Source: Escherichia coli
GTDB taxonomy: Bacteria > Pseudomonadota > Gammaproteobacteria > Enterobacterales > Enterobacteriaceae
Assembly: GCF_003334385.1 (NCBI RefSeq)
Contig: NZ_QOWN01000005.1
Length of the DNA: 64,000 bases
Reading direction: 5' to 3' (one strand)
Under the pieces are notes generated by a model that was not told the DNA's origin, ran no database searches, and saw only the letters and a list, made by a program, of their open reading frames with translations. A program made the translations under genes and the position numbers. Each line of letters opens with the position of its first letter. Position 1 is the stretch's first letter. Shown here in pieces: positions 31,582-32,516 of the stretch.

Positions 31582-31609
31582 GGCGGGAAATGCTCCCGCC
31601 TTATTTTTT
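31582..31609 (+). terminator. Rho-independent terminator after dksA, overlapping the gluQ 5' end
   Basis: ggcggg-aaatgct-cccgcc hairpin followed by TTATTTTTT. Confidence 0.65.
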
Positions 31610-32516
31610 GTTCAAAGAGATGACAGACACACAGTATATTGGCCGCTTCGCCCCCTCTCCTTCCGGCGAGCTTCATTTTGGCTCTCTGATCGCCGCGCTC
31701 GGCAGCTATTTGCAGGCTCGCGCCCGGCAAGGTCGCTGGCTGGTACGCATAGAAGATATCGACCCGCCTCGTGAAGTTCCCGGTGCCGCAGAAACTATCC
31801 TGCGCCAGCTGGAACATTACGGTCTGCACTGGGACGGCGATGTTCTCTGGCAATCGCAACGTCACGACGCCTATCGTGAAGCACTCGCCTGGTTACATGA
31901 ACAAGGACTAAGTTATTACTGCACCTGTACGCGTGCGCGTATTCAAAGCATTGGCGGTATTTACGACGGTCATTGCCGGGTGTTGCATCATGGACCAGAC
32001 AACGCCGCAGTGCGTATCCGCCAGCAGCATCCGGTCACGCAATTTACTGACCAGCTGCGCGGCATTATTCACGCCGACGAAAAACTGGCACGGGAAGATT
32101 TTATCATTCATCGCCGTGATGGGTTGTTCGCCTACAACCTGGCTGTTGTGGTTGATGATCATTTCCAGGGCGTTACAGAAATAGTGCGTGGGGCTGATCT
32201 GATTGAACCAACAGTAAGGCAAATCTCGCTGTACCAGCTTTTTGGCTGGAAAGTGCCAGATTACATTCATCTGCCGCTGGCGCTTAATCCACAAGGCGCT
32301 AAACTTTCCAAGCAGAATCATGCGCCTGCGTTGCCGAAAGGCGATCCACGCCCGGTACTAATCGCGGCACTTCAATTTCTGGGGCAGCAGGCAGAAGCAC
32401 ACTGGCAGGATTTCAGCGTCGAGCAAATCCTTCAGTCAGCCGTCAAAAACTGGCGGCTTACCGCCGTGCCCGAGTCGGCAATTGTAAATTCAACATTCTC
32501 AAATGCGTCATGCTGA
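31590..32516 (+). CDS. gluQ: Glutamyl-Q tRNA(Asp) synthetase (308 aa; alternative start MTDTQ at 31620)
   Basis: [32 protein letters not shown]...; class I aaRS HIGH-like motif. Confidence 0.88.

Follow-up and report, generated by a model that had tools for sequence, protein, structure and literature searches.

The window analysed here is a 64,000-nucleotide stretch of Escherichia coli DNA, and its positions 30702-32902 are the exact reverse complement of E. coli K-12 MG1655 NC_000913.3 158800-161000 (100% identity). The locus is the dksA-gluQ region of E. coli K-12. It carries sfsA, dksA, gluQ (also named gluQRS or yadB) and pcnB, as assigned from the list of open reading frames (ORFs) and the RefSeq annotation of identical E. 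coli sequence. Below, ATG1 and ATG2 denote the first and second in-frame ATG of the gluQ ORF. The features that matter for the junction between dksA and gluQ are as follows, each with the evidence on which it rests.

31099..31553, + strand: dksA coding sequence, 151 aa (ORF list; RefSeq annotation of the identical E. coli sequence)
31551-31553, + strand: dksA stop codon, TAA (sequence)
31581..31601, + strand: terminator hairpin of the dksA transcription unit (sequence, fold, terminator scan, conservation)
31581-31588, + strand: 5' arm of the terminator stem, AGGCGGGA (sequence)
31589-31593, + strand: terminator loop, AATGC, 5 nt (sequence)
31590..31592, + strand: ATG1, the annotated gluQ start in MG1655/UniProt (308 aa), not the functional start
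31590..32516, + strand: long gluQ ORF, 308 aa (ORF list)
31594-31601, + strand: 3' arm of the terminator stem, TCCCGCCT (sequence)
from 31602, + strand: terminator tail, TATTTTTTGT (sequence)
31602..31609, + strand: terminator U-tract, TATTTTTT (sequence; mapped RNA 3' end at 31605)
31620..32516, + strand: true gluQ coding sequence, 298 aa, beginning MTDTQYIG, with no Shine-Dalgarno sequence

From residue 11 to residue 308 the long ORF matches the protein of PDB entries 1NZJ and 4A91 exactly (298 aa, E = 1.6e-207). This identity to an enzyme whose structure and biochemistry have been characterised assigns gluQ as glutamyl-Q tRNA(Asp) synthetase (GluQ-RS/YadB). Alignment with the GluRS catalytic domains starts only at residue 17 (long ORF numbering), and the first 10 residues of the long ORF therefore have no counterpart. 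The dksA start has a strong Shine-Dalgarno sequence, AAGGAG, at a spacing of 7 nt (anti-Shine-Dalgarno duplex, -9.2 kcal/mol). At the far end of gluQ, PGAP, the automatic annotation pipeline of NCBI, places the pcnB start at 32576 on an ATT codon (a non-canonical AUU start). A promoter-like TTCTCA-17-TATGAT lies at 32496-32524, within the 3' end of gluQ, and agrees with S-159171, the transcription start published for pcnB-folK, at window 32531 (PMC4161252).

At 31542-31563 a 7-bp hairpin, AUGGCUG/CAGCCGU, holds the dksA stop codon itself in its 8-nt loop. This structure has a predicted energy of -10.3 kcal/mol, compared with -3.7 kcal/mol when its 3' part was shuffled, and 2 of 200 shuffles were equally stable. 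Across 71 distinct enterobacterial sequences, the stop segment averaged -7.07 kcal/mol against -5.06 kcal/mol for the shuffled control. The non-coding 3' arm shifts in sequence and register among these sequences and retains its complementarity to the last Ala-Gly codons of dksA.

Beginning 28 nt past the dksA stop codon is a hairpin of 8 bp with a 5-nt loop (-14.5 kcal/mol, ViennaRNA), which is followed by the tail UAUUUUUU. This is a G+C-rich stem-loop directly before a run of about 7-9 U, the definition of an intrinsic terminator that we applied, and a consensus scan ranked 31581-31601 as the top terminator-like site in the region (8 pairs, 6 of them G-C, a loop of 5, and 7 T among the first 9 tail bases). 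The initial annotation had placed the first ATG of the 308-aa gluQ ORF inside the loop of the dksA terminator, and sequence and fold agree that it is the central triplet of that loop. Its further readings, of a T-tract within codons 4-7 of the long ORF (CCT TAT TTT TTG) and of a second in-frame ATG at 31620 after the terminator, are likewise borne out by the sequence; ATG2 (31620-31622) stands exactly 10 codons after ATG1 and 18 nt beyond the stem.

The hairpin and U-tract are the already characterised Rho-independent terminator of E. coli dksA. Term-seq in E. coli (Adams et al. 2021; PMC7815308) found an RNA 3' end at 160097 on the minus strand of MG1655, which coordinate conversion from our MG1655 alignment places at window 31605, four bases into the U-tract. 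This end was represented by 3,097,035 reads in LB at OD 0.4 and by 254,767 in a second condition. Its intrinsic terminator score was 7.47 (values of at least 3 suggest intrinsic termination), and with a Rho score of 1.16 ('No') it was classed as not Rho-dependent and was insensitive to bicyclomycin. In 800-nt windows, coverage was 250 upstream of this end and 62 downstream of it; with bicyclomycin the two values were 250 and 72 (PMC7815308). Note that the Term-seq tables list this main dksA terminator end as ORF-internal, 15 nt into gluQ, a label that arises because the study used the 308-aa gluQ annotation.

The same arrangement was dissected in Shigella flexneri by Caballero et al. 2012 (BMC Microbiol 12:226, PMC3542578), who described a hairpin of about -14.7 kcal/mol with the first AUG in its loop and a second AUG 27 nt downstream of the loop AUG. 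By RT-PCR, dksA and gluQ-rs share a transcript. A promoterless lacZ fusion that ran from about codon 20 of dksA to the gluQ-rs start gave baseline beta-galactosidase only, so that gluQ-rs lacks its own promoter. Downstream lacZ went up about 10-fold when the terminator/intergenic region was removed and more than 2-fold when the terminator stem carried point mutations (PMC3542578). RNA-seq of E. coli (Conway et al. 2014; PMC4161252) presents ligT-sfsA-dksA-yadB-pcnB-folK as an example operon, in which an internal terminator ends a dksA-specific unit and pcnB-folK forms a unit of its own; there is no yadB-specific unit, and yadB/gluQ falls within the read-through unit. From the lacZ and Term-seq data we roughly estimate read-through of the dksA terminator at about 10-25%. 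The dependence of gluQ expression on dksA read-through, which had been put forward from the sequence, is upheld by the lacZ fusions (PMC3542578), the RNA-seq (PMC4161252) and the Term-seq (PMC7815308).

Annotations of the gluQ start disagree. The initial annotation took 31590 as the annotated start, which holds for the MG1655 reference record (gluQ 159186..160112, 308 aa, NP_414686.3; UniProt P27305 likewise has 308 aa) but not for PGAP-annotated E. coli genomes. In the five such genomes examined, all five start gluQRS at the equivalent of 31620 (897 nt, 298 aa), and among the annotations compared the 308-aa form is kept solely by the MG1655 record and UniProt. When GluQ-RS was expressed behind its native upstream region, Edman sequencing returned the sequence that follows the second Met, corresponding to a 298-aa protein; this was a T7/pET over-expression in a heterologous context, and the predominant band alone was sequenced, so that a minor 308-aa species could have escaped notice (PMC3542578). 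Nascent-chain N-terminomics in E. coli K-12 (TRAINSPOTTER 2026; PMC13245402) reports for b0144/P27305 a single N-terminus, MTDTQYIGR, starting from residue 11. The table labels this entry '308 -> 298, N-terminal truncation (10 aa)' and has none for the database start; for ATG2 it lists no Ribo-seq or Ribo-RET support (PMC13245402), which probably reflects low expression. Non-detection of a Met1 peptide is not proof that the 308-aa form is absent. The crystallised enzyme (PDB 1NZJ and 4A91) is the 298-aa form.

Initiation energetics favour the same codon. In the read-through context, opening the region from -15 to +15 would cost 19.3 kcal/mol around ATG1 compared with 6.6 kcal/mol around ATG2. 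The best anti-Shine-Dalgarno duplex for ATG1 (AGGCGGG, -6.3 kcal/mol) lies within the stem at a spacing of 2 nt. That for ATG2 reaches -1.7 kcal/mol and offers no usable spacing, and the real GluQ-RS start was described as having no obvious Shine-Dalgarno sequence (PMC3542578). The Edman, N-terminomic, PGAP, crystallographic and comparative data all point to 31620 (MG1655 160082) as the functional gluQ start, giving a protein of 298 aa, and the 308-aa MG1655/UniProt annotation is an over-extension. Earlier doubt over the true start was justified as far as 31590 is concerned, but the uncertainty itself has gone, with the evidence favouring 31620. Term-seq, N-terminal sequencing and lacZ fusions, all of which had been proposed as checks, were already in print and agree with what had been read from the sequence.

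We compared the junction across relatives in a single scan of species-representative genomes, which yielded 80 Enterobacteriaceae loci, 79 of them with enough upstream sequence to be analysed. The terminator core GGCGGG/CCCGCC occurs in 75 of these 79 other enterobacterial loci and a shifted form, GTCGGG/CCCGTA, in the remaining 4, so that a terminator structure stands at the equivalent place in all 79 aligned loci. Because the core is kept across these loci, the hairpin is above chance. The six core G-C pairs are invariant in 74 distinct sequences, and the loop and flanks vary freely: there are 31 distinct top-of-stem plus loop sequences among 80 aligned sequences. The top pair of the stem alternates between A-U and G-C, the outer pairs vary among A-U, C-G and U-A, and covariation is limited to these positions. 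Each of the 82 loci examined has an ATG aligned with 31620. Among loci with a scored core hairpin, the spacer between the stem and ATG2 measures 10-27 nt and occupies all three frames, and is therefore non-coding.

The loop ATG has a much narrower distribution. Within Escherichia it is found only in E. coli, E. albertii, Escherichia sp. E1V33 and Escherichia sp. MOD1-EC7003, and it is in frame in only 3 other loci. A 1-nt deletion in MOD1-EC7003 brings a TAA six codons past the loop ATG. E. whittamii has ATA at the equivalent position, isolate AF16 has TTA, and E. fergusonii was reported to retain the hairpin with no Met at the loop position (PMC3542578). Outside Escherichia the loop ATG is absent, save for one independent Kosakonia case. 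In that locus, from Kosakonia pseudosacchari (L051), an in-frame ATG lies in the terminator loop (GGCGGGATGGATTCCCGCC), 39 nt upstream of the gluQ ATG; its sister species (L052) has ATCGATT instead. That K. pseudosacchari gained a loop ATG independently, while its sister species has none, shows that such ATGs arise by chance.

Within E. coli, the 70 bases at 31566-31635 are identical in 4457 of 5425 complete genomes. The sampled variants of this segment all fall outside the stem, and two of them lie in the 10 hypothetical codons, where each changes an amino acid when read in that frame. ATG1 was present in every true E. coli sequence inspected; as expected, this retention fits a conserved terminator, and it does not show that the ATG itself is neutral.

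Two groups of loci depart from the common pattern. In 15 Enterobacter, Lelliottia and Yokenella loci (L031, L043, L044, L047-L049, L061-L063, L065, L068, L069, L072, L074 and L082), the conserved hairpin stands about 45 nt ahead of gluQ with a degenerate T-tract, TTGTTACYGT, behind it, and only 12-14 nt part its CCCGCC core from the gluQ ATG. These loci may have weaker termination, or a hairpin that serves another purpose. The dksA-gluQ spacer measures 96-151 nt in L029, L032, L036 and L067 and in L013, L016, L022 and L040, and about 57-75 nt elsewhere. The first four of these (from Phytobacter, Kosakonia sp. S29 and an unclassified Enterobacteriaceae MAG) have an extra upstream hairpin and the variant terminator core GTCGGG.../...CCCGTA. 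The enlarged spacers suggest insertions or intergenic remodelling.

We are highly confident in an account in which terminator-limited read-through supplies gluQ, translation initiates at ATG2, and ATG1 is a fortuitous triplet of the terminator loop. Transcription that starts at the dksA promoters, or further upstream in the thpR-sfsA-dksA-gluQ-pcnB-folK operon, runs into the terminator, and the majority of transcripts stop in the U-tract at about 31605. A minority read through carrying the promoterless gluQ, which makes gluQ a low-level passenger of dksA transcription. On the read-through RNA the hairpin is expected to re-form, burying ATG1 and the Shine-Dalgarno-like AGGCGGG in the stem and loop. 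Ribosomes instead initiate at ATG2, in an A/U-rich and weakly structured stretch with no Shine-Dalgarno sequence, to give the 298-aa product. ATG1 is a fortuitous, Escherichia-restricted loop triplet that is in frame by accident. Of this account, the protein N-terminus, the terminator with its 3' end and the lack of a promoter are established. Sequestration in the hairpin would be the reason for the silence of ATG1, and the U-rich tail may assist initiation at ATG2 independently of a Shine-Dalgarno sequence, for example via ribosomal protein S1. Were ribosomes to start at ATG1 on terminated RNA, harm would presumably follow, as they would run off the 3' end and leave non-stop complexes.

A second, regulatory role for the hairpin is the alternative that survives best, and we regard it as improbable. 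According to this reading, growth phase or stress would act through the hairpin, as a regulated attenuator or as a site for a bound protein, to set how much gluQ is transcribed or translated. The six invariant G-C pairs, set among a loop and flanks that are free to vary, would suit such an element, but an invariant G-C core is also expected from purifying selection on a strong terminator at short evolutionary distance, and covariation is confined to the outer and top pairs. Retention of the hairpin in the 15 Enterobacter, Lelliottia and Yokenella loci, despite a degenerate T-tract and a nearby ATG, also speaks for it. In S. flexneri, the intergenic RT-PCR product rose 20-fold in stationary phase, and Caballero et al. 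leave a riboswitch-like or protein-mediated mechanism possible (PMC3542578); this RT-PCR was semi-quantitative and is weak evidence. Set against these points, a search of 30900-32700 returned no Rfam family even at E<=1, giving one meaningless 19-bit snoRNA match inside dksA, and around the terminator we found no antiterminator pairing and no leader ORF.

A riboswitch was rejected on the result of that Rfam search, and neither an aptamer, a leader peptide nor a competing antiterminator was found that would mark the site as a riboswitch or attenuator. The only other local structures are the stop-codon hairpin (31542-31563) and a U-tract hairpin of -2.1 kcal/mol, neither of which overlaps the terminator arms. 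The latter, formed by the U-tract and AAGAGAUG (31602-31622), would occlude ATG2, and we rejected it as a regulator because it reaches only -2.1 kcal/mol alone. A more specific version, in which the stem doubles as a regulated element that is factor-bound or conditionally leaky and gluQ read-through or translation goes up in stationary phase or osmotic stress, is in our view slightly less probable still. If true, a regulated hairpin would explain the survival of this structure in the Enterobacter group, where the U-tract is degenerate and the ATG is about 12 nt away.

Use of both ATGs, with a minor 308-aa proteoform made when the hairpin is open, is very unlikely. In one form of this idea, a 30S subunit would occupy the nascent AGGCGGG..AUG ahead of transcription of the 3' arm, which would also suppress termination. 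The duplex of -6.3 kcal/mol that AGGCGGG forms with the anti-Shine-Dalgarno sequence lends the idea some substance, but this element is merely 2 nt from ATG1 and inside the stem, and opening the initiation region would carry the high cost given above. ATG1 is in frame and open through to gluQ, and it is retained in E. coli, E. albertii and Escherichia sp. E1V33; against this, it is lost in E. whittamii and AF16, is followed six codons on by TAA in MOD1-EC7003, and precedes codons in which both E. coli SNPs are non-synonymous. Experimental initiation is not reported at both ATGs, as the two independent experiments show the Met11 N-terminus only (PMC3542578, PMC13245402). The non-stop complexes that would be expected from use of ATG1 on terminated RNA also weigh against it. 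Antitermination coupled to translation from ATG1 was rejected on its non-conservation, the 2-nt spacing of its Shine-Dalgarno-like element and the lack of a long proteoform.

The least plausible alternative, a promoter belonging to gluQ that makes read-through unnecessary, could draw on a sigma-70-like TTCAAA-18-TATATT at 31611-31640 (9/12 match) or on a computational RegulonDB sigma-24 site, as that site is cited in PMC3542578, but the former would start transcription near 31647, past both ATGs, such matches occur at chance frequency (3 found against 1.7 expected in shuffles), a scan of 31000-31660 for sigma-E-like GGAACTT-N15-17-TCAAA gave 0 matches against 0.4 expected, the terminator stem and ATG2 are only 18 nt apart, the promoterless dksA-to-gluQ fusion stayed at baseline (PMC3542578) and E. 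coli RNA-seq has no yadB-specific unit (PMC4161252). A dedicated gluQ promoter downstream of the hairpin, which together with clear initiation at 31590 was named at the outset as what would overturn this reading, is contradicted by the chance-level sigma-70 match, the empty sigma-E scan and the silent fusion.

The preferred account, of read-through supply and initiation at ATG2, has close precedents. S. flexneri dksA-gluQ-rs (PMC3542578) is the same element in a near-identical genome: the hairpin, the loop AUG, the absence of a promoter and the N-terminus all match the window, and we see no material difference, the window being E. coli K-12. Term-seq, RNA-seq operon maps and N-terminomics add E. 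coli-specific support beyond the S. flexneri work. The leaky intrinsic terminators of rpsU-dnaG-rpoD and recA-recX, as they are cited in PMC3542578, set the ratios of genes within an operon, as at dksA-gluQ. So far as that account describes them, these operons share with dksA-gluQ an abundant upstream gene, a Rho-independent terminator and a scarce, promoterless downstream gene with a poor ribosome-binding site; unlike them, the dksA terminator overlaps a spurious annotated start codon.

The annotation error is of a familiar kind as well. In over-extended starts that N-terminomics or Ribo-RET has corrected, the longest-ORF rule chose an upstream ATG and proteomics a downstream start, and the same is true of gluQ. 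Many alternative-start cases classed as 'N-terminal truncation' are genuine dual proteoforms; unlike these, gluQ has no evidence of use of its annotated start.

The arrangement, the mechanism and the true start of gluQ are already known, having been published in 2012 and since confirmed by genome-wide data, and they are not new. Our analysis adds the comparison of enterobacterial loci and the energetics of initiation. Its practical value is an annotation correction only, in which the start in MG1655 (NP_414686.3) and UniProt P27305 moves to 160082 (window 31620). A start at 160082 would also remove the artefact of an 'ORF-internal' Term-seq 3' end. For the biology of E. coli, dksA-gluQ offers a clean textbook case of a low-abundance gene that is carried on terminator read-through and translated from a start with no Shine-Dalgarno sequence.
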